A stretch of DNA of 56,983 nucleotides. Source: an archaeon (GTDB lineage: Archaea; EX4484-52; GLR71). Positions 17,854-52,200 of the stretch are shown piece by piece; the first letter of the stretch is position 1; each line of letters starts with the position of its first letter. The notes beneath the pieces are model-generated. The model ran no database searches and was not told the origin of the DNA. It was given only the letters and a program-made list of their open reading frames with translations. The translations under genes and the position numbers were made by a program. The stretch covers positions 1 to 56,983 of the forward strand of contig WTCA01000030.1 of NCBI GenBank assembly GCA_013138805.1. Reading direction: 5' to 3'.

Positions 17854-17865
17854 AATATGCACCGA

Positions 17866-18498: not shown

Positions 18499-19506
18499 CT
18501 ATAATTTTCGTGTATTTCCAGCATCTTTCCTGTAAATGAAATATGCAACGACCAGTATTATTATCAATATTATCCAGAACATATTATTTCCCCTAGCGAT
18601 ATCCAACCGGGAAGCTTCTACTTTTGGGATAATCTTTGGCTTCTCTATAGATAACATAACCTGTTTTGATGATGAATTTATGTTATAAAATACTGTTGAA
18701 TTTACAAGATAGTTATCAGGAGATATCTTATCAGAATTGAATCTGGCACTCAAGACTCCAATCTCATCAGGCGATACAGATACATATCCGGAACGTCCTG
18801 TATCAACCAATGTGCCGTTTTCATAATATATTGCTACATCCGGGCTATATGATGAGAATGTTGCAGTGCCTGTATTCTGAAAATATATATCAAGAATGAC
18901 ATCATTAGCCGAACTGCCCTGCATGATATCCAATACATTGCCGCTGACAACACAAACACCATCAACCTTAAATTTTACGGTGATTGCCACCAATGCGACT
19001 ATACTTACGGAGCTGCCTGAGTCTTTGCTGATATAAGGTGTTGGCGCTATCCTGAATGCATGATAACACGGTTCTGCATCATCAGGAATTTCCAAGACAA
19101 AATTTACTTTTTTCCAGTCCGATATGGTTCCGCCCTTAGTGTTCAATAAGACATTGGCGGGTTTGAGCACATAAGGATTATCTGGAAAATATACCCATAC
19201 TGAGCTGTCCACTTCTGAAACAAGATTCACTATATCTGAATTTGCAGGTTTTTTGAAAAAATCAAGATTTGCAGGCGAAGATGTTAATTTCACAACAATC
19301 TCATCAGGCGATGATGTCACAATAAAAAATGAGCCTACAACCTTTTCTCCCCTATCCAAAGTTCCAAGATCTATAACTAATGGGGAAACACCGACCTGAA
19401 ACTCTTTTGCAGATACAGGAGCTGTCAGGATGAAAGATATGAAGATATAAATCATTAAGATATAGCCGGCTGCGCAAAATTGTTTTTTTGAAAATGAGAA
19501 TATCAT
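18499..19506 (-). CDS. 335-aa type-I surface protein (signal peptide, two beta-sandwich domains, C-terminal TM)
   Basis: Signal GYILMIYIFISFILTAPVSA/KEF. Anchor MFWIILIIILVVAYFIYRKD. The ATG at 19504-19506 is preferred over the GTG at 19515. Confidence 0.65.
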   Translation of the reverse strand: MIFSFSKKQFCAAGYILMIYIFISFILTAPVSAKEFQVGVSPLVIDLGTLDRGEKVVGSFFIVTSSPDEIVVKLTSSPANLDFFKKPANSDIVNLVSEVDSSVWVYFPDNPYVLKPANVLLNTKGGTISDWKKVNFVLEIPDDAEPCYHAFRIAPTPYISKDSGSSVSIVALVAITVKFKVDGVCVVSGNVLDIMQGSSANDVILDIYFQNTGTATFSSYSPDVAIYYENGTLVDTGRSGYVSVSPDEIGVLSARFNSDKISPDNYLVNSTVFYNINSSSKQVMLSIEKPKIIPKVEASRLDIARGNNMFWIILIIILVVAYFIYRKDAGNTRKL

Positions 19507-19515
19507 TCCTATCAC

Positions 19516-28207: not shown

Positions 28208-31200
28208 TCACATATTCTCAAGCCTTGCTTTCAAAGACTGTATATAGGTCTCTGACATCTTGAAGACGCCCTGCTGAAGCTTAGTGCGGGCCATGTTAAG
28301 CTCAATCTCTATATCATAAGTGTTCACACCTTTCACTTTCAGAACTTCTACTTTTTTAGCAAGAGTATCAATTGATCTCTTCAAACCCATATAAGTATCA
28401 AGCTCTTCATTGCTTAATCTGCCGGTATCATGCAGAAGCGGCCTGAACTGTATGAACCAGGGCTTACCGTCATTATATTCGGGATTCTGTATAAGTCCTG
28501 CACCTACTGTAAGCTTTGCTACACGCATAGCATAGTCAGGACCATATCTCTGCTTGATACGCTGAATATCCCCATTATATTTAGTCCTGAGCTGAATCTC
28601 ATTTGCTACATTAGCTTTTATAGCACCCTTGAAATCTGCCAATACCTGAGATATCATGAACAGGCCAAGACCCCATTTTCGGAATTCACGGCAGCCGCGT
28701 TCAAGTTCAAGATAACCACCCTTACCGCCATATTTTGGAAGCAGCCTGTGCATCTCATCATAGACTATCAGAACTCTCAAAGTCTTTGCCTCAGGCCACT
28801 GGATACTGAATATGCTCTTTATAGTCCTCCTTACAAACTTATCAAGCTCAGCTGAACTTAGCTTGCTCATGACGAATACTGTAATCTCGCCAGGTTTCAT
28901 ATACTGGCGTATGTCTATTTCCGCATCAGTAAGGCTATCTGCGCTTTCAACAACAATTATATTTGTCTTGTAAGATTTTGCATTCTCTGGCTTAAGGCCG
29001 TATTTGGAATATAATTCAAGCATATGCGGATCTTTGCATGGATGTATAAACCCGCTCCACTGTGCTGTCGGGTCAAATACGACTACAGGTATGCCAAGAT
29101 CCAAAAGCTCTTCAGCTGTTGACATCGCAGTTACACTCTTTCCGGAACCTGTACCACCAGCTGCAATGGAATGCATGGTAAGGTTCTTAATGTTGATGAA
29201 TGCGTTGATATCTGTCTCTGCAATCTTTCCGACCTTTACGCTTTCTTCACCTTTCTGCGGCAGCTTTGAATAATCTGTCGGGAATATATATCTTGCAGCC
29301 TTCCTTTTCTTTTCAAGGTATGACAGATATGCTTTCCTGCCGAAATATATGCCAGGGATCAGGATCAATAATACAATATAAGTGACCCAGCTCATAAACA
29401 GCTTGCGAAGGAGAATCAGCGGCCAGGGCTGAGTGCTTACATCAAACACATCAGCAGATGATGCTGTCTTTTCAGCATTTGAATATTTCGCATTTGCATC
29501 TATGACATAACGGGTCTCTTCTGTGCTGTTAGGAATGTTTATGGATTTTACAAAGGACAATGTCTGATTCACTGCCAAAGTCTCGGAATAAGTTGTCAAT
29601 ACCTCTTCTGTCTCAAGGTTTTTTATGACATATTCCATAGTTATGTCTTCAACAGTCTTTGTCTCGCCCATGTTCTTGATAGTGACCAGCATCTTCAGGT
29701 CATCACCCGGCTTGACAACATTTGACAGAACATTGATTATGACATCCAGAAGCGCTTCTTTTTTAATTTCAACCTTGACTGTTATAGGAGTCTTGTATAT
29801 AGAATTACCTGTAGTTATTACTATATCGCCTGTATAGGTCCCAGGCATTGTAGACGGCAGGGCATAGACTGATATCTTTACATTCTCGGCAGAATTTGCA
29901 TTCACAGTGACTTCTGTTTTCTCAAGTTGGATAAGATCCCATACAAGACCATCAACACTCAACTTTGATGTTGATATCATATCCTGGTTATTCTTTATCT
30001 CAATTGAATGTATGGATCTCTCGCCGGGTGCCAAAGTGATATAGATTAATGTGGACTTGATTTCAATCGGGACTATGTTTTCGTCTAATTCCGGAGGTAT
30101 CAAAATGCTGGTGTCATCATCATCACCGCCATCATCACCAGTATCACCAGTTCCACCACCGCTGCCACCGGTTATGGCTGACGGCATCGGCGGGAATGTA
30201 GGTATGTCAATCACGCAGTCTGCAGGACATATTGAGTTGGATTCGCCATAAGCGGATTCACATATAGCATTCCCGCATATATATTGCGCTACTGCATAAG
30301 CACCGGTTACGACTGTAGTATCAACTGAAATTGTCCTTAAATTTGTATCTATAGATCCGTTTCTCCTTAACCAAAGGCTTACGCATCCTGTCTTTATGGC
30401 CCAGTTATCACAGTGATATATTGCAAGGTTGCTTACTACCACATCATCATATGGTGAATAGTCAAAAGTTATCTTCGGATTCACACCCATCAGAGTATCA
30501 TAATATATCGCTTTCTTTGGCCCTGAACCTATCAGTGATACAGGTATGTCACCAAAGACAGCCGGATTGAAAATATTTCCTGGAGGCATGCTGAAATCAT
30601 TGAAATCAAATGTCACATTCAGGACATCTACTGATACATCATACAATCTCACATATACGCTTTCATTGTAATATCCTGTCATGTTATCAGATTCAAAACT
30701 GTGCATCAGGGTCGGTGTGTCATGCTTATACATGCTGAAATTTGCGATGGTTGTTGCATTGCCAACACTTTCAAGATCATAAGAGTATCCTGCGAAGTAT
30801 GAAAGCAGATACGAATCAAAAGCTGCGGTTGTGACATTGACATTGTCTGAAAGGTCATAAGCGCTTATAACCACCTGATAAGGTCCCAGACCAGATGTGT
30901 CTGTGAACTCAAGCTCATAGAAATAATCATCTCCTGAAAATGAAATCAAGGTTGCATTATCTGCAAATATTGTCCCGTTCGGGAAAGTTATGTCGACTAA
31001 TACATTGCGCATACCTCCAAGATCTGTTGTGTTAATAAAGATGGTTACAGGCATTCCGTTGACTATGCTTGCAGGCAAAGATACTGAAAGCTGCGGCGGT
31101 GTTGCATCAGTATATACAATTGCGTCCTGTTCAGTTGCAGTTATCAAAAGGTTATCTGTTGCATAGAATGCATCTGCCACAAGATCATAAGCCACACCTG

Positions 31201-34200
31201 ATATGACATCAGGAGCTGTGAAATTGACTGTCCAAAGACCCGATGCGACAGAGTAGTTGACAGATGTGATATTTACGGAAACTGAAGTCCCTGCGTTAGT
31301 CAGGTTTATCTGCCATGTCACATTATCATCCAGAGGCACGAAAGCATAAGTCAGGTTAAAGATGACTGTCATGTTGTCGTTTTTTGATACATTCAGCACA
31401 GGAGATGAGGATGTCGGCGAGATTACATCAAGATATAACGGATGTATCGTAATGTTCAAAAGAGTATCATGGGTCTGCGGGAATGCTGTAAGATTTGTTG
31501 TCCTGAAATAAGCAGTATATGTCTGCAAAGATGTCAGTTCAGGTGCTGTATAATTTATCATGACATCTGAATAATTTCCTATAGGAAGATCAAGCATGCT
31601 TGCATTCACTCCAAACAAAGTGGTGTTTGTTGACTGTGCAGATACTGTCAAATACATGTTGCCTATATTTGACACGCGAACAGATCCAAACTCACCTGTT
31701 GTGTTTGCAATGACCACTTTTGATATCTGTACAGGGTTATGCATCCATGTCATATTCTCAGGTATTATAACAGTTATATTTGCAGATGTGTTTGTCTTTG
31801 ATGTGGAGATTGTATATGTCATATAATATATTCCGGATGAATAGATCTCAGGAACATACGCTGTGATTGTGAAATTTGTGCTGTTGCCTTTTGTCAGATT
31901 GACTATTGATGACGGATTGAAAGATATATTGAAATCAGCACATCCAATGCCTGAAGTGCAGTTGAACTCTATATCTTCTGCAATATCATTGCCCAATGAT
32001 TCCAGTGTCAGGTTCTTGCTATCATTATTTCCGTTTTCAATGATAAACATTACAGGATCCTCTGTTACGTTAAGCACAGGGTTTGAACCTATTGTCACTT
32101 TTATAGCAGTTGTCAAATTATCTGTTGAGTTATCATAATTTGTCCAGTTGGATGTGAAATTGATGTAATAGTCGCCAATTATATCTTTAGGTATTGACAG
32201 TTGGGTGTTTCCGTTATAAGGTGTCTTGAATATGTTACCCATAGCAAACTGCGAAGGCGATACATTCCACAAGGCAGGATATGTTATTGTCGTATTGACA
32301 TCAAGTGCTCTGGAATAACCTGCATTCAATGTTGTGAAATTGATTGTGATATTCAACCCGGAATAAAGGGTGACACCATATATTGTTGCATTTGTTATGT
32401 TTGTCTCTGTAATTATTGTTGTGTTCACTGCGACCGTCACATTATACTCAGGCGTGCATATCACAAGCGATGCAGTATCATTTGCGCATATCCTTATCTT
32501 ATGTATCCCTGTCTCATTCTCGCTGTAATTGAGATATACAGATGTCCCGTTCATGGCAAAGTAATCTATAAACACTGTGCCGTTTGGTTTTGTTGAATTG
32601 AGCCACACCTGTGATACGGCGACATTGTCTGTCACTTCTGCTGATATATTTGTGTATCCTGTTCCGGATTCATAACCCATAGGGTCTATTGATACATTAG
32701 ATATGACCGGAGGCAGGTCTGTCACATTGAGCCAGAAGTCTGTGACTGAAAATGGTGGATTGCCTGTAGCATCACTCAGATAGACCATCACATAATACAT
32801 ATCCTGTGCTGATGAAGAAGGAATTGAATAGTTCACTGTCACATTTGAAGAAGCACCGATACCCAAGCTGAATGCCAATGGTTCTCTTGTAACAAACGAA
32901 GTGCCATTGCCGCTTAGAAGAACCTGTATATTTCTTTCAGAATTTCCATTGTTGGATGCTGTAATTGTTCCTATCTGTGTTGTGCTGGTATTTACAAGAG
33001 CAAGAATGGTTCCGAATGTGGACGGTACACGTTCCCATGAGAGATCCAAAGGTACTGTTGCATTCACAAACACAGAATCGTCAGGAGCATTATCTGATTC
33101 TGCAGACACCCATGTCCAATAATATCCAGCGTCCTGACCATACGGTATATCTATAGATATGTCAGATGTGAAATTTGATCCGGCAGGCAGATATCCCCAA
33201 GAGGGCTGAGATATTGTAAGATTACATAAAGGACAGTCAATAGCTAATGTATTTCCTACTTTATCAAGAAGTATATTTGTAATAGCATCATTTCCTGATG
33301 CACTGACAGTTACAGTATCGATTAGCGTTGTCTCCCCATGAGGTGTCTGATTCTGGATATAGTCAGGTATAACTTCAAGAACAGGATTTGATGCAACAAC
33401 CACAATTGTACTACCTACTGTAGAATTCATAGTCCTGTCAGGATTATCCCACCAGATTGTATTGTATACTGTTATCAATTGAGGTCCTGTCTTTGCCGGG
33501 ACTGTGACAAGGAAGGCTCTTGTGCACATCTCACCGATACTCAAGTTTCCGCAGTCATAGTTTGTCGTATTGTATGTCAATGTACCTATTGGAATTTCAT
33601 CAACACTTATAGATACATTATATGCAGTTGCAGGACCATTGTTTGTAGCGTTCACTGTCAATACAAAAGATTCACCAGATATCTGGGTAATGCTGAATGC
33701 TGTAAATGAATCGGTCTGTGCTCCTGTCATATCAATCTTCCCCCAGACGCTGAAGCTTCCGGCATATGTCACATTTGTGTTGTTTTCCGGAGGAGAATCG
33801 CTTGCGACTATATCTACAGAATAATTGCCTCCAATCGGCGGCATATAAAGTGTTGAATAAGTGTCATTGACTGTATTTGCCATAGTCACATTGACTATGC
33901 TTCCGTTCGGCAGAGTTATCATGGCAAAGGCTGAATACACGCCTATGTCGTCAGTAATTATAGCTGTTATGTTTGTAGTATTCAGGTTAGCTTCCAATGT
34001 GCTGTTAGGGATTATGGTCATATTTGCAATGGATGGCGCATTTATATCTTCAACTATTATTGTTGCTGTTGCATTGCCAATATTCGGCGAATAAAATACA
34101 GTTGCATTATCTGTTATGTTGCACATGAAATCAATAGTACCTTTTGAGTCAGGATACCATACATATCCTGCAAGGCCTGAACTGTTTGTTACATAAGTAC

Positions 34201-37200
34201 CGTTATAGACATAATCAGACCCGTTAAGATACCAGAAATCAACACTATAACCTTCTACAGAAGCACCTGAATTATTATCTTTCACAAGACATTTGACATC
34301 AAAAGATCCAGGGTATGCCTGTTGGGATCCGTTGAGAGGCTCCCACCATATAACATCAACAAGACCGTTTATATTTATAGATATGTTATCAGTCCCTGTT
34401 ATATAATATGGTCTTGTCGCATTTGAAACCAGTGTTTTTGGCCCAGGAATCTGTGATACAAGCGGATATGTTGTGTTCTGACCTGTCGCAACAAAACCAG
34501 AATCTATATACCAGTCAACTGTTGCCGTGTCAACATAGCTGTTCTCATTTTCAATGTAAGATGTAAGATTCAAAATTTCTGCCTTGCTCCATGAACTTCC
34601 ATTTGCAGGCCCGGTTATGTTGATATATAAAAAACCGTATATACCTATTGTTGTCTGGTTTGTGATTGAGTCTTCAAGCCCTGCTTTTGTTGAGTTTATG
34701 TATACAACATAACCTTGCGGTGTGATGTTTTCAGGTGCGTCATAAGTGATGTAACAGTTTCCGTTCACATCAGTTGTGCAGTTGTCCATAAACCCTGTTG
34801 AATTGTAAAACCAAACATCTGCGTTTTCCGCCGGACCTATGAGGGCATCATATATTGTGACTGTGATATTTGTATCATACGGACTGAATGTATTGTTCCT
34901 GTATATGTCTGGATTGGACAGCACTATTTCTGTTATTACCGGTGACCTGTTTATCCTTACAGTAGTATTCTCATAATAAGTTGACGGCGTGTAATATAAT
35001 GAGTCATCGGAAGATATAGAACAGCTTATATTGTACCAGCCATAGTTCTCTGATGCTGTGGACCATATCCATACTGCGGTACCGTTTGAGTCTGTCAGGT
35101 TTGAATCCTGGAAAACATCATTCTTGTAGAAGCTGACATTATAGCCGGTTATATTTTCTGTTGTGTTGGCATCAATCACATTGCACTGCACATAAATATT
35201 GTATCCTGCAAGATAACTTGAAAGATTCAATGGCAAGATTGATGATATCATGCTCCAGCCATAGACATAGATGCCTGTCGTATTGGTGCCGATGTCATAA
35301 TCTGCGCGGGTCGCATTTACAGTTATGGTGTCAGGGCCTTTTGTATAATATATTGGGATGTTCCAGCTTGTGTCATATCCGGATCCTATCTGTATTGGTG
35401 TGCTGTTGTACCAGGACACAACTGCATCAAGAACAGGATTAGAACAGTCATCAGTCACAGTAGTGTTCAAAGATACTGTTGTGTTCCTGTTAAATATAAC
35501 ATTTTCCTGCGGATCAATTGGATTGGTGTATAGCTGCCCTATGACTGACAATGATACATTTGATGAGTTGATTATCTGGTAACTGGGGTCATCCACTGCA
35601 ATCTTCCATTTCTGCGCACCCACATCACTGTCACATTGCGGATCATAATCAATTCCGCAATAGCCGTCTGAGGATGAACATGACTCATTATAAGTGAAAA
35701 TATTTCCGTCTTTTGTAACCCATATTGTTGCATTTGTATCATTTTGATAGACTTCATAATCAGTATCATATATTCTTACATTAAGGAATGCAGTCGTCAC
35801 ACCGAGCCGTCGTACTGTACTGTTGCTTGCCGGATCTATTGAGATTGTGATATTATCATAATCAAGCGTGAAGTTATAGACTTCTGTCTCGCTGCTGAAA
35901 CCGAATACGCTTTCAGAGATTATCTTATAATAATTAAGACCTGACGGCGGTGTAAGGTAATCATTGGATGTGAACCTTTCATTGAAATATACCCACTGGT
36001 TTATAGGTGTTCCAACAAGCTGCCAGTTTACAAGATCCCATGAAGAATTATCAAAGCTTTTCCACAGTGATACATTGTTTGTTGCAAGATCAAGACTTGT
36101 AAGCCTTACGCTGAACTGATGATTCTCTCCCCAGCCGCCAAATTTGGGAGATACAGATACAAGTTCAAGTATAGGTGTCGTTCCAAGGAAGAACCTCTCA
36201 TCTCCTGAGGATTCATTATCTGCAAAAAACTCTTTTGATACATCTGCAGTTACATTGTACCATTTATATGGCTTGCTTGAAGAGTCCCATGTGCAGTTAT
36301 AGTCACCGCCGCTCTCATTCCATCCTGCATTGCTTTGCTTGTTACAAAAATACTCATTAGGAAAATTCAATAGAGCATATGATATTGTTACATTCTCAAC
36401 AGGACCGCAGTCATCAGACACTGTAGATATAAGAGGTATGAGGTCACCTCTCAAATATCCCTGCTCATATACATTTGTTATGTTGAGGAGAAGTGTTGAA
36501 TTCACAGACAGGTCATATTCTGTGGAATTCTTATCCTTATAGCAGACATCATTTACTATTCCTCCTTTCCATTTCTGAATGCCGACAGTATAATTACATT
36601 TCTGGCCGCCGTCCGGGAACTGCTGCATAAAGTAATATGCGATTGAACTGTCCAATGTAACTGTATCTTTTCCTATGTCCCATGATGAGGTATCATTCGC
36701 GTCAGTTGTCACCCAGAACCGTGCAGAAGTGCCTGTACCTACTGAGATATTACCCCTATCATAATCTAAAATATCCAACATCAATGTCGTGTTGTGGGTT
36801 CCGTTCCGCCAGACATAAGAATTGTCTCCTGTTGCGTATTGTATTGTCACATCATTTTTATCAATTGTGAAATTGTGAGGCGTTGTAGTGTTTACTTCTG
36901 CATGAGTATCGCTTGCCTCAAAATAATATTCCCAAGTGTCTATATTTGCACAATCAGGATTATTCCATGAAATAATTGCATATTCATTCTGTGGATTATA
37001 CAATGTTGTTGTGTTTTTTGGTGCGCCCCAAGCACCATCTGTATATTTTTTTGTATAAAGGTTTAAAGTGACATTGTCCCAATCCTCATCAGTCACATTG
37101 ACTGAAAAATAGAATGTTTCACCCCAGCCGCCAACATCTGTAATTGCAGTTTCATCTGTCAAATCCGGTAATGTCGTCACAAAGATATGATTTGCTTTAA

Positions 37201-40200
37201 GCAATGTGCCATTATTGTAATACTGCTCCCATGATATTATCTCTGTGTCGTACCATCTTGCTGCCATGTCGGTCGTGTTTCTTGTGCATTCATAATAACC
37301 ACCAACTATCTCTTCGCTAATACAGGAATAATTAGATACATTATCTTCATTATAAAAAGTGAAGCTGTTATTTATGTTTTCAAGGCCGAGATTACAGTCA
37401 TCAGTTATTGTAGGTGTTATTGTGCTGCTCAATGTGACATTCTCCCCTCTCAGATATTCAGAACTAAAAGGAGGATTCTCAATAGTATTTATAAGGTCTC
37501 CCATTATTGTTGTGTTATATTCTAAAGATAGATTTATTGCAGCATAACATGAATCTGTAACTCCTGCTTTCCATTTCTGCGGACCTATCTTATAAGTTGG
37601 AGAGGAACATCCCGGATTGAAATTGTAGTTTGCATAACCTGTGGAATTTGTCAATATGACAGTCCCAGTATCATAAGTCGGATTGTCATAGGTTGTCCAG
37701 AATGTCACGGATGAATCTGTCATCACTGGCATGCTTGCGTTGTCAAGATCAAGAACTCTTGCAGTAAACAATGCAGTCTGTGCACCTGACCGGTTCACGA
37801 CAGAATCATTGCCGAATATATATTCAATTGAGACAGTGTCTGCCGTAAGGTTCGGTCCGGACATTTGGCTTGTGTTGAACTTATTTGTGCCGTCATATAT
37901 CTGGAATTTGTACAGATTGTCTGTACCAATCTCTGCGCAGTCGAAATCCATGACTGATAGGGTGCAGTTTGCATCACCAGCAGGTGCGGTCTCTATGAAT
38001 GTGCTGTTCTTCAATATCCATAATGCTCCGTTGTCTGTGCTGACGAAAAGGTCGCAGGTAATGTTATCCTGCTGAGTGTCAGATATCTGGGCTTCATAAG
38101 TATATACACGGCCCCATCCTTCTACATCAGGAGATACTGTAAAATTTTCTACTATTGGCGGTGTATTGTTCAGGTATGTCCAATTAGAGAATATTGTTGA
38201 ATTGCTGTAATAATCTGTCTTGCTTGCATTAATCCTGAAACTCCAGTTTCCGCCCTGATGGAACAGTGTATCCCATGAGGAATTGTAATAGCCTATACTG
38301 TTGTTTGTTACAGGAGTTATATCTTCAAAGACAATATCCTGATATACTGCTTCATGAGTTATGGAAGCTTCTGACATCTGGACTGTGCAGTCATCATAGA
38401 TGCTTACATTCAGGTTTACAATAGCACCTACAAGTATGTTTGAGCCTTCTGCAGGATCTGCGATAGAGCTTTTCAACTGCCCTATTATGTCTGTATCCCT
38501 GTCAGATGAATTTGAATCCTTATAGCAGGCATCACCGTTTGAACCGCCTTTCCATTTATGTCCTCCTACAGAATAATTGCAGTCCGGGTTGAATGAATAA
38601 TACAGATATCCTGAAGAATCTGTCTGGTTCTGTGTGCCTAAATCATAAGAAGATCCGTCTGTTGTCACGAATATCTTTCCTGTTGCGTTAGGTATTGATG
38701 AACCTACATATACGTTGTGGTCTGCGTCAAATATCCTCACTGAGAAAACTTCGATATCATCCCCTTCACGACCTATCTGTGACAGGTCCCCCATGCCGCC
38801 ATAATATGTTATTGTATCATCCCTGATTATGTTGAATGTTCCTGATGTCTCATTTGTATAATTATAATTATCAGATGCGTTGAACTTGAAACCCCTTGTA
38901 CCTATATCACTGCATGAGAATCCGTGACCGCTAAAGCTGATAGTCTGTATGCTTCCACAATTTGTGCAGACTGTTGAATTAAGAAGTTCCCAGTCTCCTG
39001 TAAGATTGACCCAAAGGTAAACATTAACATTATCCTGATCCTCATCAAGCAGATTTACTTCAAATGTCCAGGATTCACCCCACCCATAATCTGATAAACC
39101 AACAGATGTAATGGTCGTAATAGAGGGATTGCTAATCTCTGGAACTGTCACAAGACGGAATGCACTGTCTTTCCTATAGATATCTGAAGAGTTATAATAT
39201 AATTTTGAAGCAGTAAAGTTTATGTCATAGTCACCTGTAAACCATCCTGTTGTGGATGCTGCAGGTATTGTGCAGTTGTAATAGCCGTCTGCCTCATCAT
39301 ATAATGTATTATCAGGAGGGCATGTGAAATATGGAATTGCTGACTGTTCAACTACAAACTCTGAGCTTGCACCAGGAACCAGACCGCAATCATCTGTAAC
39401 ATTACCCCTTATCAATATGTCATCAACACCACGAACCCTTGTGATGCCGTCAGGCTCTGTAAGGGTTGTCAATAACGGTATTGCAGTTATATTAAATTCA
39501 ATATCAGATGAGTTTTGCAGCTTATACCAGCTACCCCCTATTACGCTTGATGCTTTCCACATCTGCGGGCCGAGACTATATGTGCAATCAGGATCAAGAG
39601 TCACAAAGAAATAACCAGTATTGTTTGATATAGTATCCAAGGTCTCAAAAGAACTACCATCCTTTGTCACATAGAATCTTGTATTTATAGGTGATGTTAT
39701 CAACAGGTCTTTGTCATCATCATATACACTTACACTGAAAGTCACATTCGGATTGCTGTTTCCAGGCAGATCTGACCTGTTGACAATTGAATTGTTTCCT
39801 GAAAGTATCTCAATCCTAACATCATCAGCTTCAACTGTAAATGATACATTTGACGTCTCATATTCATCCCATGCATCGTCAGCTGTTACATTGAACTTGA
39901 ACTCCCAGTCGTCCATATCATTTCCGCTTATGAATTTTGCAGACAGGTTTACAGTTACATTTATTCCCTGCGCGGTTGTTGAGTTTTTAAATATCCATGT
40001 GCCGCTTGATGTTTTCTTTATCCAAAGCCTTACAGTCATAAGGTCATTATCCCTGTCTGTCGCATTTGTCGTGAAATAGAATGTCTCTCCCCAACCACCG
40101 GTACTTGGGTTTGGAGACGGCAGTGAAAGATATGGCAATGTCTCTATCCAAAATGAAGATATCCCATAAGCGTACTGGAATACTTCCGAGTCATTATTGT

Positions 40201-43200
40201 AGAATGACTGTGATGAGTTCACCTCAAAGTCATAGTATCCCGGCGGCATACCTGTGTTGTTGAATGTGCAGTTATAATATCCTGTAGACTCATTGTTGAT
40301 TATGCAGGTGTCTGAATATCCTGTCCTGAAATACCTGAAAGATACATTGCTCTCATTCATCACTTCTGCTACGCAGTCGCTTGTAACATTAGCTCTTAAA
40401 GTAACATTGTCATCAAGGAAATACTCAACACCCAAAGGCGATGCTAGAGAATTATATAGAGTTCCATACACTGTCAGATTATATTCGGTTGTGTTTTTCG
40501 GTGTATAACAGGAATCGTTCACTTCAGCATACCATTTCTGATCTCCTACATCATAGGAACAGGACGGTGTGAAATCATATGTCGCATTGCCGCCGGATGT
40601 TGTATTGAAACCTTCAAGAATATATGTTGTGCCGTCGGTTGTTATGTTGAAATATACATCTATATCTGGTGAGACAGGCATTCCTCTCACAGTGTCGTTG
40701 ATGTATACCTTAAGCTGCTGCATACCGTATGATCTGTTGACATCCTTATTGTTTCCGTCCATATATATTATCTTAATATCATCTATAGTCATGTTCGGTC
40801 CGCTCATATTTGTAGTGTTTATCGTGTTATAGCTGTCATCAAGCTCAAACTTGAAATAGTTGTCAGTGCCGATGTCACCGCAGTTGAAATCAGAGACTGT
40901 CAGGTTGCATACTGCAGGGCTTGCTAAAGTTGTCATGTTCCTGAAGATCCATGATGCACCGCCATTGGTTGTTGTATAAAGGCTGCAGTTGACTGTGTCT
41001 GCATCCGGATCTGTGAAATTTAAGCTGAATGTATATGTTGCACCCCATGCACTGGAATTTGGCGTCACATTAAGGTTTGAATAGGCTGGAGGATTGTTGA
41101 GAAGCTCAAAATATTCTGTCAATGTGTCAATTGCAGTATAATATGTGCTGTTTGATGCATTTGTTTTTATTGTCCAGTTTCCCGGCTCCTTTAATGTTGA
41201 ATCCCAGGTGCAGTTGTACCATCCTGCATCAGATCCGGTCTCATCATTTATAGGAGAACAGCTATACCATGAGGCGGATGGGCTTTGAAGCTCAATGCCT
41301 TTTGATTCGGCCTCTATCCTGCCTTCAACTGAACAATCGGTTGTCACATTGAATCGCATAAAAACTGGTGTTCCTGTACCATAGCTTGAACCGTTTACAG
41401 GTGATTCAACGCTTGTATATAATTTGCCATATGAATCAAAATATTCTGTGGGATATAAAGAATCCTTATAACAGACACTTCCTGATGTCCCTCCTTCCCA
41501 TGCATGCTCGCCTGTAGTGTAAGAGCAGTTTATGTCAAAATCATAACTAAGGTATCCCAATGCATCTGTCTGCAATGCGTATCCATCATCAAAACTGCTT
41601 AAGTTACTCCAGTTCACAGTGACCCAGATCTTACCATTAACACCGGATTCTACCGAAGTATATCCTCTATCTGTATCCAGTATCTGTGTCTTAAGAAGTA
41701 TTGTGGCGGTGCCGTTCCTGTCAACATTCTGGCCGCCTGTACTTACAGGTATCGCATCCACATCATCTTTCTCAATTGTCATTGTTGATGTGATATTATC
41801 AGTATAATTATAGTCATCAGATACATTGAACTTGTATTGCTTTACACCAAGATCCGCTGCACCTGCACAGGAAAATGTTTTTCCTGCAAAGGTTATTGTC
41901 GGATCGCCCTGAGACCATATCACAGAATCAAGAAGTTCCCATGAACCTGTACGGTTTATCCAAAGAGATACATTTGAACTGTCTCCGTCATTATCCATGA
42001 TATCTACTGTAAATGTCCAAAATTCACCCCAACCACCAATACTGCCACCCTGTGTCGATGTTGATGTCGGGTTTGACAAGACAGGCCTTGTGACCAGCCG
42101 GAATGCATTTTCCACCACAAAGACATTGGAATCGTTATAATATGTCTTATCTGCTTTTATTGTAATATTATATAATCCGACAGGCCAGGTATTATGGGTT
42201 GTATTTGCAATTGTGCAGTTATACCAGCCGTCAGTCTCGTCGCCGGCAGGGTAACATAATGCATATGTTGTTCCCCCCTGTACCACACTGATATTTACAT
42301 TGGCATCACTTACAGGACCGCAGTCATCTGTAACATTTCCTCGAAGAAGAATATTATCCACACCTTTTTCAAATGTAAGTCCGCCTGTGGGATAATCAAA
42401 CATGGCTACAAGAGGTGTTGTTGTTATGTTGAAATAAAATTCTGTTGAATTTGTTGAGTTGTATTCAAAATTATCAAGAAGACCTGATTTCCATTTCTGA
42501 GGCCCTACAGCATAGGTGCAGTCCGGCTTAAATGTGTATGTCTGATAACCTGTTATATTTGAATTAATATAGCTTGTCGGCAGGAAAGGGTATGGAATAT
42601 AATTGCTGAAAGTATCATTTGTCAGGTAAAACTTGCTTCTCTTAAATGGGATAATAGCGTCAGGATCCTTGTCAACATCCCATACTCTTGTGATTAATGT
42701 TATATTATAATCCGGGTCGTATGCCTGGGCTGACCTGTTCACTATACTGTTATTTCCGGATATATATTCTATTGAGACTGTATCTTTTTCAATATAAAAA
42801 GTCTTTTCAATAGTCTCGTTTGTATAGCCATCACCATCTGATGCTGTCACATTGAACTTATAATACCATGTCGTATCTGCATATACATTAGTAAATGTCT
42901 TTGGCGAGAAAGTTACATATTGATTGACACCTGATATTGTATTGTTTGTCAGGGAATTTGCGGGAACATATCCATCACTTTCATTACGGAACCATGCTTT
43001 TACTATCAAAGTATCAAGATCATAGTCTGTCGCATTGACAGTGAAATAATGTTTTTCTCCCCATCCGCCAGATGACGGAGTAACATCCGATGCAGCAAGA
43101 GTTGGCCTGGTCTCAATCCAGAATGATTCTGTTCCTTCAGAATAGACATCTGTAGTTATCTCGGTGATATAGAACGGCTGTGTTGAGTTCATAGTTATGT

Positions 43201-46200
43201 TATATCCTCTTGGTTCTTTTCCTGCCGTGTCAAAAGTGCAGTTATAATAGCCTGTTGATTCATTGTATATCTCGGTCGTGCAGGCATATTGTGTTTCTGT
43301 ATACTGAGAGGTCATTGTGAAATTGACATAAGTTGTGTTCATCGTCTCCTGAGAACTGCAGTCGCTTGTTATGTTTGCACGGATTGTCACATTCTCCTCG
43401 CCGCGAAGATATTTTTCTCCGGAAGGAGAGGTCACAAGATTTGTCATCTGCCCATAGATTGTGATTGTATAATTCTCTGTTGTATTTGAATAGAGATAAT
43501 TGTCATCAGTTATACCTGCCAACCACAACTGATTTTCTGTTTCATAATATGGTGTACATGTCGGCGAAAATATATATGATGCGTGTCCTGTTGAGTTTGT
43601 CTGTAACAGGGAACCGCTGTCATAAGTTGTGCCGTCTGTTGTTATCCAGAAAGTCACATTGGAACTATTTATATAAGACTTGTTTTCAAGGTCATAAGCC
43701 CGCACTATAAGAGTTTCGCTTCCTGCTGACCTGTTGACAGATGTATCATTTGCAGAATAGAATGTCACATTGACTGACGGTTTTGTCACTGTCGGTCCGC
43801 TGAAGACTGTTGTGTTGAATGTGTTTGATGATTCAGCATCTTCTATCTGGAATTTATATGATGCAGTTCCCATATCCTGCGGAGTGAAATCCCATACGAG
43901 AATGCTGCAGTTACCAGTACCGCCCATGACTATGCTTTGACCTTTATCAACCCAGACGCCTGTCGTGTTCGTGAACAGTGTACAGGTCACATTGTCTGAT
44001 TCTGGATCGTCAACAGAGATGTTGAATGTGAAATTCCTGCTCCATCCACCGCTTGATGGTGTGACTGACTCATTATCATAAGTGGTGTTAAGATTCTCAA
44101 GCCAGAATCTGTCAGTCCACCATGTCGTGTTTGGATAGTAATCGGATAGAGTGGATGTCATGTTGACTGTATAGTTGCCTTCCAACTTGCCTGTGGAATC
44201 CCAGGTGCAGTTGTATATTCCTGTACTTTCATCATTCACAGGACTGCACTGGTATGTGCTGCTACCTGAATGCGTAAGGTTAAGAGCTATTGATGCGCCT
44301 GCCTGATTTCCTTCAGCAGGACAGTCTGTACCTGTTGAAATATTTACAAAGATGCTGTCAGTCACATTGAAGACAGAATCCTGGACAGGCAGGTATAAAC
44401 TGTTCTTTAGCTGGCCTACAATCGCAAACTGCCTTATAACGGTTAGGTTTTTGTCTTTATAACAGATGTTATCTGTTGTGCCTATAAGCCAATACTGATC
44501 AGTTGATGCAGAATATCCGCAATCCGGATTAAAAGAATAATTCACATAACCATCTGCATCTGTAACTGTCGTGTTTCCAGAGTCATACGAGATTTCATTG
44601 TATGTTTTCCAGACTGTAGCATTTATACTTGCACCAACTATTGAGCCTAAATCTGTGTCATTTATTCTTACCTTGAAATATTCTGAATCTGCATCTTCAC
44701 GATCAATTGATACACCGGCTCCAGAAACATAGATTACTTCAATATCATCTTTTTCAAGAGTGATGTTCTTTATCACAGACTCATTTGTAAAGCCGAAGCT
44801 GTCTGTCACATTGAATTTATAATAAAGGTAAGGACCCTGAGTTAAATCAGAACAGTCAAAGATCTTGTTGAAAGTTATATTTATCCAGGCCACCGCATTA
44901 AACTTCTCTTCAGAGTCTACAAAATACCATGGTCCTGCTGCGTTATAAGCTTTCCAGAATGATATGTTATCTGTGTCATCCGGCTCAATATCCCTGAACT
45001 CTACCTTGAAGGTATAATTATATCCCCATCCTTCCAGTTCAACATCTACAAATGTCTCTCCCAGTTCCGGAGACTCACCAAGCCGTAAAGCGTCTTCCAC
45101 AAATATGCTTGACATATCATAATATGGCTTTGTTGAGTTCATAGTTATGTTATGGATGCCAAGGAATGCAACACTGCTGTCCCAGGTGCAGTTATATGTT
45201 CCATTGCCAAGATCAGTGAAAGATGAACATACATAAGAATTTGCTCCGGAGGTTATATCAAACTTTATGGTATCAGACTCATTGACATATGTTCCTGTCG
45301 TGGCGGTGCAATCATCGCTTACAGTACCGTACATTGTGATATATGTGCCTTTCTGGTATAAAGCAGTAGGTACAGGAACCTCAAGATTGTTTGAGAGTGT
45401 ACCGTTTATGTCAAGCTCATATAATGTTGAATTCTCATCAAAATAATTGGTACCCCCAATGATTCCTGCTTTCCAGTCCTGTTTTCCTGTAAGGTACAAT
45501 GGAGCTGAACAGCCAGGATTGAAAGTTATGTTAAGATTGCCGGACGGGTCTGTAGTGTCTGCCAAAGAAGTACCCCATATCCCTGTAGTTGTGCCGTTTG
45601 TGGTCACCCAGAAATATCCCTGCATACCCGCACCTAAAGCAGAATCTGTATAATTATCAAATGCCTGTACTGTAAGTACTGTTGAATTGGTGCCTACACG
45701 ATTTATATCTGTACTGTTTCCTAAAACATAATTTATGTATATGCTTCTTTTTGTTACATTGAAATCATAGACCGGCTGCTCATCTGAAAGACTGTCAGTA
45801 TCGCTTGCATTAATCTTCCAGTACCAGGTATCTATGTCTCCAGCTGCTGAATATAATCTTGTCAAGGTCTTTGTCGTGTTTATGCAGTCTGAACAGGATG
45901 TCTGGTCTGCAAGAGTCCATGGGCCTGTCGCAGAACCCATAGATTCCCAGAGATATATATCAACCGTGTCATCATCATCTGTAACATTCACAGTGAATGT
46001 TACCTGTGATTTTGCGGGATTATTTCCCCATACAACTGAAGATTTGTCAGCAGAGGCACCGGAAAGAACAGGATTTATCTGATGGAAAAATGAGTTTAAA
46101 TAGGTCTTGAACAATGGGTTAAGATATTGTCTTGTGGAATTGAGTGTGATGTTATACCAGCCGCCCGGTGCACCTGTGACATTCCATGTGCAGTTATAAT

Positions 46201-49200
46201 AACCGCTTCCTTCATTCACTACAGAACATGCAGTATAATAAGTATCATGCGACAGGTTAAATGAGACTGTTGCATCATCAACAAGATCGGTGACATCACA
46301 TTCCTGTGTCAGGTTTATCCTCACTGTGACATTATCATCATCAAAGAAATCTTCACCTGACGGAGAGACCAGAGTATCGTTCATCTCACCTATGACATAT
46401 ACTATCAATGGCTGTGTAATGTTGGTGTCAAAATAACATGAATCGTCTTTTATGCCGCCGGTCCAGTTCTGAGGACCTATTGAATATTTGGGTGAACAGG
46501 AAGGCTTAAAGATATAATTCATATGGCCTGTTGAATTTGTCTGGTTGAAATAACCACCATCATATGTTGTATCATTATAAGATACCCAGAATGTGCCGTT
46601 TCTTCCCTGTGGCAGTGTTGGAGTGCTTACATTGTCTGAATCAAACACCTGCAATATGAAATGTGTGGTTCCCGAACCTGTCCTGTTGACAGATGTCGCA
46701 TTACCGCCGCCTGCAAAATATGAGACTGTCACATTATCTTTTTCCACTGTGAAATTACTGCTTGAAAGCTCTGTGTCATTCTCATAGTCTGTCGCATTGA
46801 ACTTGTAATACCATACCTGCTGGTCTGAACAGGAAAAACCTTCATAGCTGAAATTCAGCTGGTTCCAGCCATTGCATGAAGTGCAGTTCTTGGAATCCTC
46901 AAATACCCAGGTTGAATTGTCTGACGATATCCAGAAAGAGACATTGACAGTATCGTAATCTTTATCATATACTTCTACTGAAAAATCAAATATTGCACCC
47001 CATCCGTCTGCTTCCTGCAACATGGTCTGATTTGTAAGGTTAGGTACATTGTTTATCGGCGGTATCACTCTAAAAGAATCAGCCTCTGTAATTGTGCCGT
47101 TATTATAATAAGATACATTATATGCTTTTGCAATGACATCGTATCTCCCTACACCTGTGTCTGTTGTGTTCCATTCACAGGAGTAGTTTCCTGACCCAAG
47201 ATCAATCACAGCAGTACAATATGATGCAAAACCGGTGTCTGTGTTATTCAAGGTAAGATTTAATGATGCTCCTGCAATGCTCTGGTTACATTCATCAAGA
47301 ACAGTTATGTTTATTGTCACATTCTCAATGCTGTTCTGATACTGTTCAAGATCTTTAGGGAATGTTACATTAGGCCTTAAATCACCTTGAATATATATAG
47401 TATAGTTTGATGATACCTGATCAGAATAACATGTATCTCCGTCTGTGTATGTCTGCCATTTCTGCTCACCTACCGAATATGAGCAGTCAGGCAGGAAGTT
47501 GAAATTTGCATATCCTGATGAGTTTGTGGTGTTTGAATTAAATGTTGTGAAATTATCTGCATTGTCGTTTGTTACATTCAGGTAGACTGTTGCCTGAGGA
47601 TTGCCTGCAAGAAGGTTTCTGACTGTATCGTTCACAGTATGGGCAAGAAGGACTGAGACCTGTCCAAGCGTGTCTGACCTGTTGACATATGATGCATTGC
47701 CTATATATGACTGGCCAAGAAGAATGTCATCTGTGGTCAATGTATAGTCATGGAATGTGGTTGTCGCATTGCCTTCATAGTATGAGTCAGTCGCATTGAA
47801 CTTGTAAAACCATGTGCTTATGTCTGAACATGTGTAATTTTTGAAAATATTCACCTGTGTGTCTACCGGGCCTGATAGGAATGTGTTGTTCACAACACTG
47901 TAAGGTCCGCCACTTGCGCCTTTGCTATGCCACAGAGTAAGGTTGACACCATTATAATGGCTTACAATTATTGAGAAATTCCGCTCAGAACCCCAACCGG
48001 AATCTGCTGAATTTACAGTTTCATCTGAAAGATATATCGGTGCTGTCAGGAAAAATGCATCCACTCTTGAATCATTGTCCGGATGGTTATATGGCTTTTC
48101 AGCATACATTGTCACATTATAATATCCACCACTAATACCCACAGTATCAAAATTACAGGAGTATACACCGCCGCCTTCATCTGTCGCATAGCCTGCTCCC
48201 GGGCATCTGAAAGTGTTTGCATTTCTGGTCAGGTTGAAATAAACAGATGCGCCTGTCACATCAGTTCCGCAGTCATCTGAAAGAGTTCCGTTCACAGGTA
48301 TGATATCATCCTGAGTATAATTTGTCGATGTGTCAGGGAATGTCTGGGTTGCTGCAAGCGTTCCGTATATGTTGACATTTAATGTGAAAAAGCCTTCAGT
48401 ATCATTTGTCTTGAAATAGTCGCTTGATGTGTTCACTTTCCAGTCCTGCTGGCCTGCAACATAATCGCATCCTGGATTAAAGTCCAGATAATAATGTGTC
48501 GTGTTTTTTGTGTCTGTTGTCTCTTCGCGCCAGAATGATGCTGCTGTATCATTTGTTATCCAGAACTGCACCTCATCAGGCGATGAGGATGAGAGATTAG
48601 TTGTGTATGTATTATTGTCATCATCATATATTCTTAAAGATAAATTTGCGCTGCCTGCGGTCCTGTTGATGTCAACTGCTACAGGTACGACATCTGAAAA
48701 AGATATGTCATCCTTTTCGATGGTGAATGAGCCTGTCTGAAGCGATGTATTTATGTTTCCGGATATATCCGATGCGTTGAAAAGATAGTACCAGTCATCA
48801 ACTTCATCCTGTGTGAATGTCCTGTTGAACACTGTCTGGTTATCCTTGCAGTCATAACATGTCCAATTTTCATACAGGTTCCAGGAACCTGCGCCTTTCT
48901 TAAGATACAGATATACTATGACAGTATTATTATCCTCATCTGTCACATTTATTGTGAAATTGACAGGTGATGCTGACCAGCCATCAGATAATGGAGATAC
49001 ATCCACATAATCTGATTGAGGCACTGTGGACAGATAGAATGCGTTGACAAGAATATCTGTACTGTTCACATAAACACCGAATTCGGTGCCTTCAGAATAA
49101 GATATCATCGTCACATTATACCATCCCAACGGTGCGTTTCCCGGCGAGTTCCATGAATCTGTGGCAAGAGATGCTATTACAGAATAGTTTGTGGCACCGT

Positions 49201-52200
49201 TTGACAAGACATATTCTGTCCCGTATTTTGCGCTGTCAGATTTCACAGCATTGCAGTCATCTTTTATAGTGCCGTCAAGAGGTACTGCACTGCCACGGGT
49301 GTAGTTTACACTGCCGTCCGGAGAAGACATAGATGATGCGGACAGGTTTCCTAAAAGAATGAAAGGGATTGAACCGTAAGGTGAAGGTATTGTGGAATTG
49401 TCCTTATAGTATGACGAGCCTGAAAGACCTGTGATGTAATAGTTCTGCCCAAGCGAATATGATTTTGCGTCATCACACCATTCAGCAGTTGTCATTTCAT
49501 ACAGCATGTATCCTGTACTATTGACAACAGGGCTTTGGGGATAATAAGTGTTGAATGTTGTGTTGCTCCCGAACATAGATATCCGGAAATAACCTTTACC
49601 GAATTCAAGAATTTCAGGAGCTGTACCGTTGTCTGTATCATTGAATCTGGTTGTGAAGTTCAATGCAGAGCTTCGCATGACTGTCGCGTTCCATTGAGGT
49701 GTCTCATTATATACTGCAACATTGTCTTTCTCAACAGTATAGCTATGTCCGGAAAGTTCGGTTGAACCGTCAGCGTTTGTTGCGTTGAACTTGAAGTCCC
49801 AGGTTGAGATGTTTGTATAATTATAATCATAAGTGAAGTTAGCCTGTGTCCATGATACACATGAGGGACAAACCCAGCTGTCTATCAATACATAGCTTCC
49901 TGCAGAGACCTTATGCCAGGCATAGACTGTGACATCTCTTCCAAACCTATCTCTTACCATTGCCGAGAAATTGAATTCCTCACCCCAGCCGCCGATTGTC
50001 AATGCGTCATTACCATCTATATATAATGTGGAGTTATCCAGAAGAGGTGTGTAATCATAGACTTTTACATTGAAATAAAGGTTTTGAGATTCCCGGAAAA
50101 GTTTTCCTGTCACCCAGGTATAGCTTAATTTATCTACGCTTGCATTGACATAAGGATCTGATGTAGCGTCTGCGTAAGATGATATGCTTATATCTCTTGC
50201 AGAGTCTACAAATGATGCCCGGTCTGATGTATCAATTGAATAGTTGCTCCAGAGTAAATTGTATGTGTCAGCAAATGTGTAGTTCTGCCATACTGTATGA
50301 ATCATGCCTGAATCATCTGATATGTTGACTGATGCCTGGCCGATTGTAAGATTGTAGCCTGTCCAGTTATATCTTATATAAAAGTCAATCCCAGTCAGCA
50401 TCTCATATCTTGCGTCGGCAGGTTTTGTGAAACCATAATTTTCTGTTGCTGAACATGATGAAGAGGATTCACAGCCAATAGCTGTGTCATTTGATATTGT
50501 CGTGTATGCTGTAGTATTCCTTATACCTTCTGCAACAAAGATATATGAACCTTCAGCTGTGCAGTTAGCTGTGAAATTTACATATGATGATGCATAAGGG
50601 CTTATGTCTGATAACTGCCAGGTTATCTTTCGTGAGGTATCATTCCAGGTGCCGGAATCATAGACCTGTGTGATGTTGCATTCCCCCGGGATATCAAGAG
50701 TCACATTCCAGTCACTGCTGGTTGAGTTGTCGCCGATGTTTGTGACTTTCAGAGAATAGTTGTAAGAGACATTCAACTGTGAACTTCTTGGCTCAACCCA
50801 GGGATATGCAGGCTGCTGGAGTGTCTCAATATTAAATTCAAGATGGGACTCTTCGGTGTAATTGAATGTCCGGACAGGGTGCGTATCATATTCAACAAAG
50901 TTCTTATTTTCCCAGGTCGTGTTATGATATAGTGTACCTGCCTGACTTGTGCTGACCGGGGATTTTGCCTGGTATGTAAGAACTGCATATTTATTTACAG
51001 GTATTGTTCCAAGCTCCCAGGTGACGATATTGTTTATAAGATCTGTTGTCGCTGAGATAAGTTCTATGTCTGAACCATACTCGTTTGTCATGATACCCGG
51101 GTTTGCAGGGGTCCAGCCGGTCGATATTGTCTCTTTTATTATGGTGCTTCCTGAAGATGCTGTGCATCCCTTGTTGTATATGGTCAGCTGTGAATCAAAG
51201 ACTGTATCAGTCCCTATGTTTGACGGTGTCTCTCTTGTGATTTCAAGTATGGCTATTGAATTGCTCTCATTTATCATAGAGGTAGAATTTCTTGTCTTTT
51301 CAGAGACAGGATAGGTATAGGCAACGGTTGCATTGATATAGACGATTTCTGCAGCTGAGGAGGAGGAGGTAAGGTTAAAGCTGACAGTATAATTGCCGGG
51401 GGATGTCGTGTTTACCAATTGATATGCCGGCGAATAGCTCCATCCTGCCGGTGTTTCAAGAGATACATTATATTCTATTGTATCTGTGAATGGATTCGTG
51501 ATTGTGACATTGTACTGCTCAGTTGTCTGGTTGCACATCCAGTCAAGAACACGGCTTGAGACTGATACATTCTTGAATATGAAAGGTTCTGTACGGTCGT
51601 ATGAAGTTGAGCCGTTGACAAGATATGCGTTGAGATCATAGTCATCGGAAAGCCATGAAGATGTGTTGATATCTGTGATGTTAGCAAGATAGATTGAATC
51701 GGCAGAAATGCTTATGGACTGGGAAGATGAATTTATTATGGCGCCGGTGCTGTTGGTTATGTTAAGCCATAAAGTTCCTTCAAACTGATTGTTTTGGGAA
51801 TTGGCTATCCTTACAGATACATTGAAAAAACCGTCTCCTGTCTCCATCCCTGTTGTCTCTGTGCTGTTGATTGATGCCTGTAAGTTTTGGATATGGACAG
51901 TCTCATTATAATATGCCTGAAGGTTCATGGCAGTCAGATTGATGCCGTTTGAGCCTATATTTGTTATGTTGAATGTGCAGTAGCCGGTGCCGTTTGCGTT
52001 AAGCTGTCGTTCCAGAACCGGAATCCTGTCTGTGCTGTCTGAAGTCAGGTTGATAGTGTAGCTGTGCAATATGTCAGTCCAGACTGTGCCATTGTAGGAC
52101 AGGACTCTTAACATTACATCTTTTTGTCCTGCTGTGACATTTGTATAATTGATATTAAGATATGCAGCCCGGTAATCTCCTGAGTCGCAGGCAAAATATG

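Follow-up and report, generated by a model that had tools for sequence, protein, structure and literature searches.

The question raised by the locus described here is what an ATPase of the HerA type does at the cytoplasmic end of a surface protein that exceeds 9,000 residues in length. The locus lies on the archaeal contig WTCA01000030.1 (assembly GCA_013138805.1), of which a stretch of 56,983 nucleotides (nt), hereafter the window, was analysed, and it consists of a giant open reading frame (ORF) on the minus strand together with the genes that follow it. DPANN archaea live attached to hosts and cannot make many building blocks, and how they hold the host and draw material from it is the question on which this protein family bears. 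The archaeon is itself of the DPANN type, as the first-pass annotation of the window had supposed, its nearest relatives being metagenome-assembled genomes of Aenigmatarchaeota. Its giant ORF almost certainly encodes, as judged from identity and architecture, a giant surface protein of the SPEARE type known from DPANN archaea, in this case from Aenigmatarchaeota, and its C-terminal ATPase is placed, by sequence comparison and structural modelling, in the HerA clade of the FtsK-HerA superfamily rather than with VirB4, VirD4 or FtsK. The family is the most conspicuous feature of DPANN genomes, with a single gene taking up as much as 3% of a genome, and was found in no fewer than 508 species-level genomes.

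The frame of the giant ORF contains no stop codon from the end of the window to its own stop, that is, over at least 9,591 codons. This number is a lower bound, as the N-terminus and any signal peptide lie beyond the window, and the alternative figure of 9,552 residues results from counting from the first TTG only. In DNA with approximately 40% G+C, an open frame of 28.8 kilobases (kb) excludes a chance origin. The last 337 nt of the window (56648-56983), coding for residues 1-112 of the truncated ORF, share 87% identity with approximately 49784-50119 of the same gene, and the contig probably ended where it did because the assembler could not resolve this internal repeat; the gene may in reality extend considerably beyond the part present in the window.

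That the ectodomain and the ATPase belong to one cistron has to be weighed against an artefactual origin, in which a giant adhesin gene and a separate gene of approximately 630 codons for a transmembrane (TM) HerA protein were misjoined by an indel in the linker at ~30080-30294. Separate genes of this kind do exist: in Nanohalovita (L002), a standalone 628-residue copy follows the giant gene and overlaps its stop by 1 nt, and standalone copies are also found elsewhere (L062, L064), while the linker in question is Gly/Asp-rich and variable. The closest public contig (L001; ZHAN22-2 scaffold_1528, P0001, ~90% nt identity) likewise seemed to carry a separate ATPase ORF of 591-668 residues. The frame breaks on that contig turned out to be 100-N scaffold gaps (9741-9900 and ~5641-5746), one of which falls exactly at the junction, and it is uninformative on the cistron. 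The gene caller had reported from it only a 591-residue “DUF87” protein and spurious small antisense ORFs, and it is because of gap fragmentation of this sort that the giant family stays hidden in protein databases.

The related loci speak clearly against such a misjoining. In GTDB species-representative genomes, where at least 508 relatives were confirmed, 80 loci were examined, and in 70 of them no stop interrupts the ATPase-bearing ORF before the upstream sequence at hand runs out. The ORF is open throughout (at least ~3,800 codons) in 41 of the 44 loci that offer at least 9.4 kb upstream, so that in these independent assemblies the frame extends past the junction by another ~3,300 codons. 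When 1.84 billion cluster representatives were searched exhaustively with HMMER, 356 matches were obtained at E ≤1e-30; among the best 150 of these, the ATPase lies almost always at the extreme C-terminus, and 108 proteins have at least 1,000 residues, 68 at least 2,000 and 21 at least 4,000, the longest representative reaching 7,878. The same TM and HerA tail, which the first-pass annotation had proposed to seek on other giant ORFs of DPANN genomes, is therefore widespread there, and one complete relative (L081, 3,591 residues) begins with a signal peptide. Partial proteins from other assemblies (P0017, P0005 and P0083) carry, upstream of the module and in frame with it, the same Cys motif and a Pro/Gly-rich linker. 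In addition, the standalone copies bear a signal peptide at the junction, where the window sequence has none, and the giant protein of Nanohalovita itself ends in the module. Given the open flanks, the long representatives and the in-frame partial proteins, the fusion of ectodomain and ATPase is genuine, and an assembly artefact is practically excluded, the probability left to it being negligible. A word-indexed protein search, the matches of which did not exceed 709 residues and were in many cases labelled “partial”, had given the impression of a standalone family; the loci and the exhaustive search identified these matches as fragments of giant ORFs.

The architecture of the C-terminal part is seen in an AlphaFold model of 697 residues, in which a disordered stretch is followed by two all-beta domains, a long helix that includes the TM segment, and then the ATPase with its tail of three helices. 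The first 75 residues modelled, which comprise the junction and the linker, have a predicted local distance difference test score (pLDDT) below 50 and are predicted to be disordered, and it is at the Cys-motif junction that the standalone relatives of the module start. The first-pass annotation had described a single TM helix followed by basic residues and a tail of ~375 residues, and this description is borne out: the K/R-rich juxtamembrane stretch GRKAYLSYLEKKRKAAR comes directly after the helix LFMSWVTYIVLLILIPGIYFG, the two form one continuous helix in the model (residues 293-335), and exactly 376 residues lie C-terminal to the TM segment. The module that is conserved across DPANN, consisting of the two beta-sandwiches, the TM helix and the ATPase, is larger than the interval 28211-29400 that had been delimited at first.

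The distribution of N-x-S/T sequons differs sharply on the two sides of the membrane. The 550 sequons that precede the TM helix correspond to 6.0 per 100 residues, compared to 2.0 expected from composition, whereas the cytoplasmic tail has a single one (0.27 per 100 residues). This contrast supports a type I topology of the giant protein, with the ectodomain predicted to be outside and the ATPase in the cytoplasm. The ectodomain had also been described in the first-pass annotation as some 9,200 residues of beta-sandwich modules, which stands for the two membrane-proximal domains of the AlphaFold model and is in line with a few weak NEW3/PITM matches, the only ones that Pfam gives in the ectodomain; it does not extend to the bulk of the ectodomain, for which no match was obtained in Pfam or NCBIfam, and two pieces of which gave nothing useful against PDB sequences. 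The ectodomain is not a simple tandem array of domains of ~100 residues. Instead, it contains a super-repeat of ~1,000 residues in 4-5 copies with 35-45% identity (ORF residues ~2200-7600, window ~34200-50400), which was uncovered by chunked BLAST, as a self-BLAST of the whole ectodomain showed no repeats owing to the culling of high-scoring segment pairs.

The tail is a complete P-loop nucleoside triphosphatase with its motifs at the places given by the first-pass annotation, and its catalytic residues are not degenerate: the Walker A Lys, the Walker B Asp-Glu, the R-E-F-R-K-W-G motif and the S-Q pair are invariant in 79 homologues, and the motifs align with the equivalent ones of HerA 4d2i. 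Only two Pfam families exceed their gathering scores in the tail, namely the DUF87/HerA central domain (PF01935, 38.1 bits against 23.2) and HerA_C (PF05872, 26.1 against 22). When the profile of the 79 homologues was compared with PDB sequences, Sulfolobus HerA (4d2i) was the best match (E 4.7e-11) and the next six were HerA or HerA-like, while coupling proteins and FtsK appeared only at E ~0.01-0.3 (FtsK at 0.04). The AlphaFold model of the 376-residue tail (mean pLDDT 94.4, predicted template modelling score 0.91) leads to the same assignment, in that Foldseek ranks 1-45 are all HerA, from repair HerA as well as from Sir2-HerA and DUF4297-HerA defence complexes, with 4d2i as the best match (E 1e-13, TM-score 0.55) and the coupling protein TcpA, at rank 46, as the first match outside HerA. 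With PADLOC, whose top matches are generic HerA models, also agreeing, the HerA branch named in the first-pass annotation is confirmed, on the basis of sequence and model, as the home of this ATPase, and the label is more precise than the “VirB4/TraG-like” of the literature. It has to be noted that none of the named HerA, CedD or TraC proteins is orthologous to the tail, since its scores fall far short of the cutoff in every NCBIfam equivalog model (42 against 800 in one case, 41 bits against 600 for CedD NF053655, and 20 against 567 for F-type TraC).

The assignment to HerA brings up the possibility that a canonical HerA function, i.e. end resection with NurA or an anti-phage system, was fused by chance to a surface protein. 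The best profile matches are indeed HerA repair and defence models, and the HerA of HerA-NurA (4d2i, 9x1l, 7f6d) shares with the tail the Walker A and B motifs and the R-E-x-R-K-x-G...SQ signature and is its best match in both sequence and structure. The resemblance is, however, limited to ~15-17% identity and a TM-score of ~0.55, and the present protein differs in being membrane-anchored and fused to an ectodomain, in having no HAS-barrel, and in having beside it a coiled-coil protein in place of the nuclease NurA, which in repair pairs is usually accompanied by Mre11/Rad50. Neither NurA, which the first-pass annotation had already reported missing, nor Sir2, DUF4297 or another effector is encoded in the window or the conserved cassette, and the module always has its membrane anchor and extracellular domains. 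Together with the equivalog scores, this makes a repair or defence role highly improbable. A reading of the locus as a defence system was also dropped after PADLOC had given only generic HerA models without an effector partner.

The first-pass annotation knew of no described case of such a motor on a surface protein of this size, and in this it was mistaken, since the SPEARE proteins had already been published. Hamm 2019 (PMC6642349) described them in Nanohaloarchaeota as proteins of up to 8,553 residues, mostly extracytoplasmic, with a TM segment near the C-terminus and a conserved intracellular C-terminal region that was interpreted as type III restriction enzyme-like, and reported similar sequences in Woesearchaeota, Aenigmarchaeota, Micrarchaeota and Altiarchaeales. 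The proteomics of the same work showed that SPEARE is expressed, its extracytoplasmic and cytoplasmic parts being present in different size fractions. Reva 2023 (PMC10266531) added SVXNc_0300 (9,409 residues, the largest protein in cultivated archaea according to that study) and BNXNv_0298 (8,880 residues), with a signal peptide, ~75 immunoglobulin-like domains, a TM helix and a tail consisting of a “VirB4/TraG-like ATPase” together with a coiled coil, and reported another ATPase gene downstream. Further published giants are NAR1_1133 (5,998 residues) and that of Nanopetramus SG9 (8,553 residues; Hamm 2019 PMC6642349, Reva 2023 PMC10266531).

The C-terminal 607 residues of the present protein are 38% identical to the C-terminus of BNXNv_0298 (CP107255.1, E 5e-136). 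The published proteins and the present one have in common thousands of extracellular residues, a single C-terminal TM helix, a cytoplasmic ATPase, a coiled-coil tail, a coiled-coil partner gene downstream, and their occurrence in DPANN archaea. The present protein differs in its phylum (Aenigmatarchaeota), in a non-halophilic composition, in its length of more than 9,591 residues, which exceeds the 9,409-residue record given by Reva 2023 for cultivated archaea, in the lack of a second ATPase gene directly downstream, and in an ectodomain sequence that is unrelated outside the base module. It also differs in that no laminin-G, protease, adhesion, toxin or “restriction endonuclease” domain was found in its ectodomain with Pfam and NCBIfam, the sole “restriction” signal being a sub-threshold ResIII P-loop match in the tail (19.1 bits against 22.5). 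This latter difference concerns the name and not the homology, and the domains behind the original acronym were also disputed by Reva 2023 (PMC10266531). The architecture itself is thus already published and is extended here to another phylum. Not found in Hamm 2019 or Reva 2023 are the placement in the HerA clade, the definition of a module of two beta-sandwiches, TM helix and ATPase, the counted distribution across DPANN, and the conserved coiled-coil and ~1,950-residue partners.

In the model put forward by Reva 2023 (PMC10266531), the protein acts as a type IV secretion-like “straw”, with the tail as a VirB4/TraG-type secretion ATPase and the ectodomain as a channel through which effectors are injected into the host. 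VirB4 and VirD4 (TraG/TrwB/TcpA) and FtsK/SpoIIIE are, like the tail, members of the FtsK-HerA superfamily; they share with it a TM segment N-terminal to the motor and would share a ring at the cytoplasmic face of the membrane. Weak matches that stay below threshold and cover the P-loop only are found with T4SS-DNA_transf (18.1 bits against 20.1) and with TraC/TraD models, next to that of TcpA in the Foldseek list. A second, paralogous ATPase gene that adjoins the giant gene in Nanohaloarchaeota can also be cited for it (PMC10266531). Against this stands that the VirB4 N-terminal domain (PF03135, CagE_TrbE_VirB) gives no match, even with E values up to 10, in the present protein or in BNXNv_0297/P0101, that the all-alpha domain and the FtsK gamma domain are likewise missing (FtsK_SpoIIIE PF01580 reaches 15.3 bits against 24, with a match confined to the P-loop region), and that VirB4 does not occur in the top 50 Foldseek matches of the tail model, whereas the top matches in sequence and structure are all HerA. 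Furthermore, the cassette holds no VirB6- or CedA-like polytopic protein, no pilin and no analogue of VirB2, VirB3 or VirB8. Chains of tandem beta-sandwiches are not known to form conduits, which counts further against a secretion channel of this kind, and it is considered distinctly unlikely.

Two genes are conserved downstream of the giant gene. The homologues of the coiled-coil partner gene lie directly downstream of the giant gene in 74 of the 80 related loci, where the start of the partner often overlaps the stop of the giant gene by 4 nt (ATGA), and one is present in Nanohalovita as well (L002 11922-13478, E 3e-13); the word-indexed protein search with the partner itself gave three homologues. 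Its product has no TM helix and is predicted from its sequence to be cytoplasmic, with a central coiled coil flanked by low-complexity Pro/Ala/Thr-rich and acidic regions and with repeated SHOCT-like motifs of the form G-[LI]-I-S-x-E-x-Y. Comparison of the partner family with PDB and Pfam returned coiled-coil noise and weak SHOCT-type matches, and no enzymatic domain. A resembling SHOCT-like motif is found in the cytoplasmic tail of ~90 residues of the 1,964-residue surface protein encoded next, whose homologues, ~38-40% identical over the full length, occur in 52 of the 80 loci. Because of this conservation, the ~1,950-residue surface protein is regarded, on sequence grounds, as the third member of the cassette.

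The composition of the cassette also gives rise to a transport-free alternative, in which an ATP-dependent ring together with the coiled coil would anchor and cluster the adhesins (inside-out control), with HerA acting as a platform as it does with Sir2 or DUF4297. The frequency of the cytoplasmic coiled-coil partner, the SHOCT-like motifs common to it and the tail of the 1,964-residue protein, and the fact that no membrane conduit is encoded nearby all fit this alternative, as does the role of HerA as a scaffold in the anti-phage complexes among the structural matches. On the other hand, the catalytic motifs are strictly kept over a wide phylogenetic distance, which suggests sustained turnover over a nucleotide switch, and all characterised HerA-clade enzymes of which we are aware act on nucleic acid. 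Clustering without transport is accordingly unlikely as the whole function.

Standalone proteins that consist of the base module (~630-730 residues) and have signal peptides of their own were found in several cases (P0101, P0103, P0105, L062 and L064). Giant and standalone copies occur in one and the same genome in CAYGBE01 (L033 and L062), CAZYZB01 (L038 and L064) and CP107255.1 (L002), and in the latter, Nanohalovita, the standalone protein and the module of the adjacent giant are 62% identical. This coexistence suggests that the two kinds of subunit may form mixed rings.

The first-pass annotation had suggested that a ring might bundle the ectodomains into a fibre, or that ATP hydrolysis might be coupled to extension, retraction or substrate passage, and these functional ideas are speculative. 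In the model favoured here, the heavily N-glycosylated ectodomain of more than 9,000 residues would be exported, presumably by way of a Sec signal peptide encoded beyond the window, and the ATPase would oligomerise into a ring lying flat on the inner face of the membrane, like other HerA-clade enzymes. This ring would gather several giant chains, possibly mixed with standalone paralogues, into one host-contact fibre, and ATP hydrolysis in the ring would drive a polymer along its axis where the cells make contact. The coiled-coil partner and the SHOCT-like tail of the 1,964-residue protein would tie the assembly together on the cytoplasmic side. By analogy with related enzymes, it is on balance probable that the ATPase is a membrane motor which forms a ring beneath a contact structure, at its base. 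The moved polymer would most probably be DNA, by comparison with HerA and the CedB/CedD importers, and a cytoplasmic end of the HerA clade points to DNA translocation or ring assembly; as a claim of its own, however, DNA as the substrate is possible and rather doubtful. The complete proposal, in which the giant HerA protein, the coiled-coil protein and the ~1,950-residue protein form the core of a DPANN-wide host-contact machine with the mixed ring as both fibre anchor and importer of host DNA or another polymer, is tentative and somewhat unlikely in all its parts. If true, such an import machine would differ from both the type IV secretion system (T4SS) and Ced and would represent a cell-to-cell transfer apparatus of a new class. 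With the HerA-clade motor and the cassette, the published “secretion straw” and “restriction enzyme” ideas can be put in a more precise and testable form.

Several observations weigh against the favoured model of a ring-forming motor. No polytopic membrane protein is encoded in the conserved cassette or the window, and the TM helix is uniformly hydrophobic, so that no conduit for DNA or protein across the membrane is visible, which is the main weakness of the model. Ced needs CedA and the T4SS needs VirB6 as a conduit, and a counterpart of these is missing here. No nuclease or DNA-binding partner is present. A HAS-barrel is not found in the tail models, in which the first strand of the core is separated from the TM helix by only ~45 residues, made up of a helix and a linker. 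The residue aligned with Arg142 of Sulfolobus HerA, which we take to be a trans-acting finger residue, is Met in the present protein and Thr in the family consensus. Finally, six ectodomains of ~1 MDa each in one ring may be sterically implausible, and mixed rings of giant and standalone subunits would be a plausible way around such crowding.

The comparison with the Ced system bears on the same model, as CedB and CedD are TM-anchored HerA-clade ATPases that are required for DNA import in Sulfolobales (PMC11868833). They share with the present family the archaeal HerA-clade motor, the N-terminal TM tether, the link to cell-cell contacts and the occurrence as paired paralogues, which may be compared with the giant and standalone copies, and a weak CedD match is obtained (PMC11868833, PMC9905601). 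They differ in that Ced has a VirB4-like cytoplasmic N-terminal domain, the polytopic CedA channel and pilins, none of which is found here, in that its ATPases are without an ectodomain, and in that the CedD score is far below its cutoff. On the side of the ectodomain, halomucin of Haloquadratum walsbyi and the giant adhesins of Omnitrophota and the candidate phyla radiation are likewise very large, repetitive secreted or surface proteins. We know of no C-terminal TM and HerA module in any of them. None appears in the domain lists of 10.1101/2023.11.21.568195 either.

Features of the giant gene and of the conserved genes next to it (positions in the window)
Feature	Position	Strand	Basis or remarks
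Giant ORF	28208..56983	minus	no stop in frame; open at window end; stop codon 28208-28210
Extracellular part, 9,194 residues in the window	29402..56983	minus	Thr/Ser/Asn-rich; 550 N-glycosylation sequons
Junction: Cys motif ICGNAICESAYGESNSICPADC (ICGNAICES...CPADC), then Gly/Asp-rich linker	30077..30301	minus	sequence, alignment of relatives, model
Membrane-proximal beta-sandwich domain 1, NEW3/CARDB-like	29771..30067	minus	all-beta; model residues 79-177; pLDDT ~88
Membrane-proximal beta-sandwich domain 2	29438..29749	minus	all-beta; model residues 185-288; pLDDT ~90
Single TM helix LFMSWVTYIVLLILIPGIYFG	29339..29401	minus	residues 9195-9215; sole Kyte-Doolittle segment >1.6 in 9,591 residues
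RecA-like ATPase core, assigned to HerA clade	28445..29242	minus	Pfam, PDB profile, AlphaFold/Foldseek, PADLOC
Walker A GGTGSGKS	29158-29135	minus	motif reading
Walker B LIVYDEMH	28771-28748	minus	motif reading
HerA signature FRKWGLGLFMISQ (REFRKWG...SQ motif)	28684-28646	minus	motif reading
NEIQLRT	28603-28583	minus	motif reading
C-terminal three-helix, coiled-coil-like extension	28211..28411	minus	tail-model helices 310-335, 341-355 and 359-375; pLDDT >90
Coiled-coil partner gene, ORF of 767 residues	25832..28135	minus	likely start ATG 28123; conserved downstream of the giant gene
Type I surface protein, 1,964 residues	19932..25826	minus	signal peptide; NEW3/MG2/Invasin-like domains; C-terminal TM helix

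Some members of the wider family depart from the common layout. In P0176, P0199, P0211, P0218, P0250 and others, with lengths of 680-1,000 residues, the ATPase is N-terminal or central and is followed by another 250-430 residues, and these appear from their sequences to have a different or reversed architecture; one reversed SPEARE was mentioned by Hamm 2019 (PMC6642349). Relatives were also found under the labels Altiarchaeota (L052, JAUXGB010000008.1) and Heimdallarchaeota (L075, JAEOTG010000200.1, a contig of 3.5 kb), the latter being probably a mis-binned DPANN contig.

Beyond the conserved cassette, the window contains an island of eight genes in the same orientation (9234-19515, minus strand), with products of 338, 182, 250, 813, 831, 225, 448 and 294 residues, all of which have signal peptides and most of which also have C-terminal TM anchors; relatives show little conservation of this surface-protein island. 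Another gene (6487-8286, minus strand) encodes a 599-residue protein in which a PIN domain and a KH domain accompany a T2SSE/PilT-type ATPase, and next to it lie the housekeeping genes pyrB and pyrI (3417-4955), Sua5 (2506-3129) and a LeuA/homocitrate synthase-like gene (1-1536).

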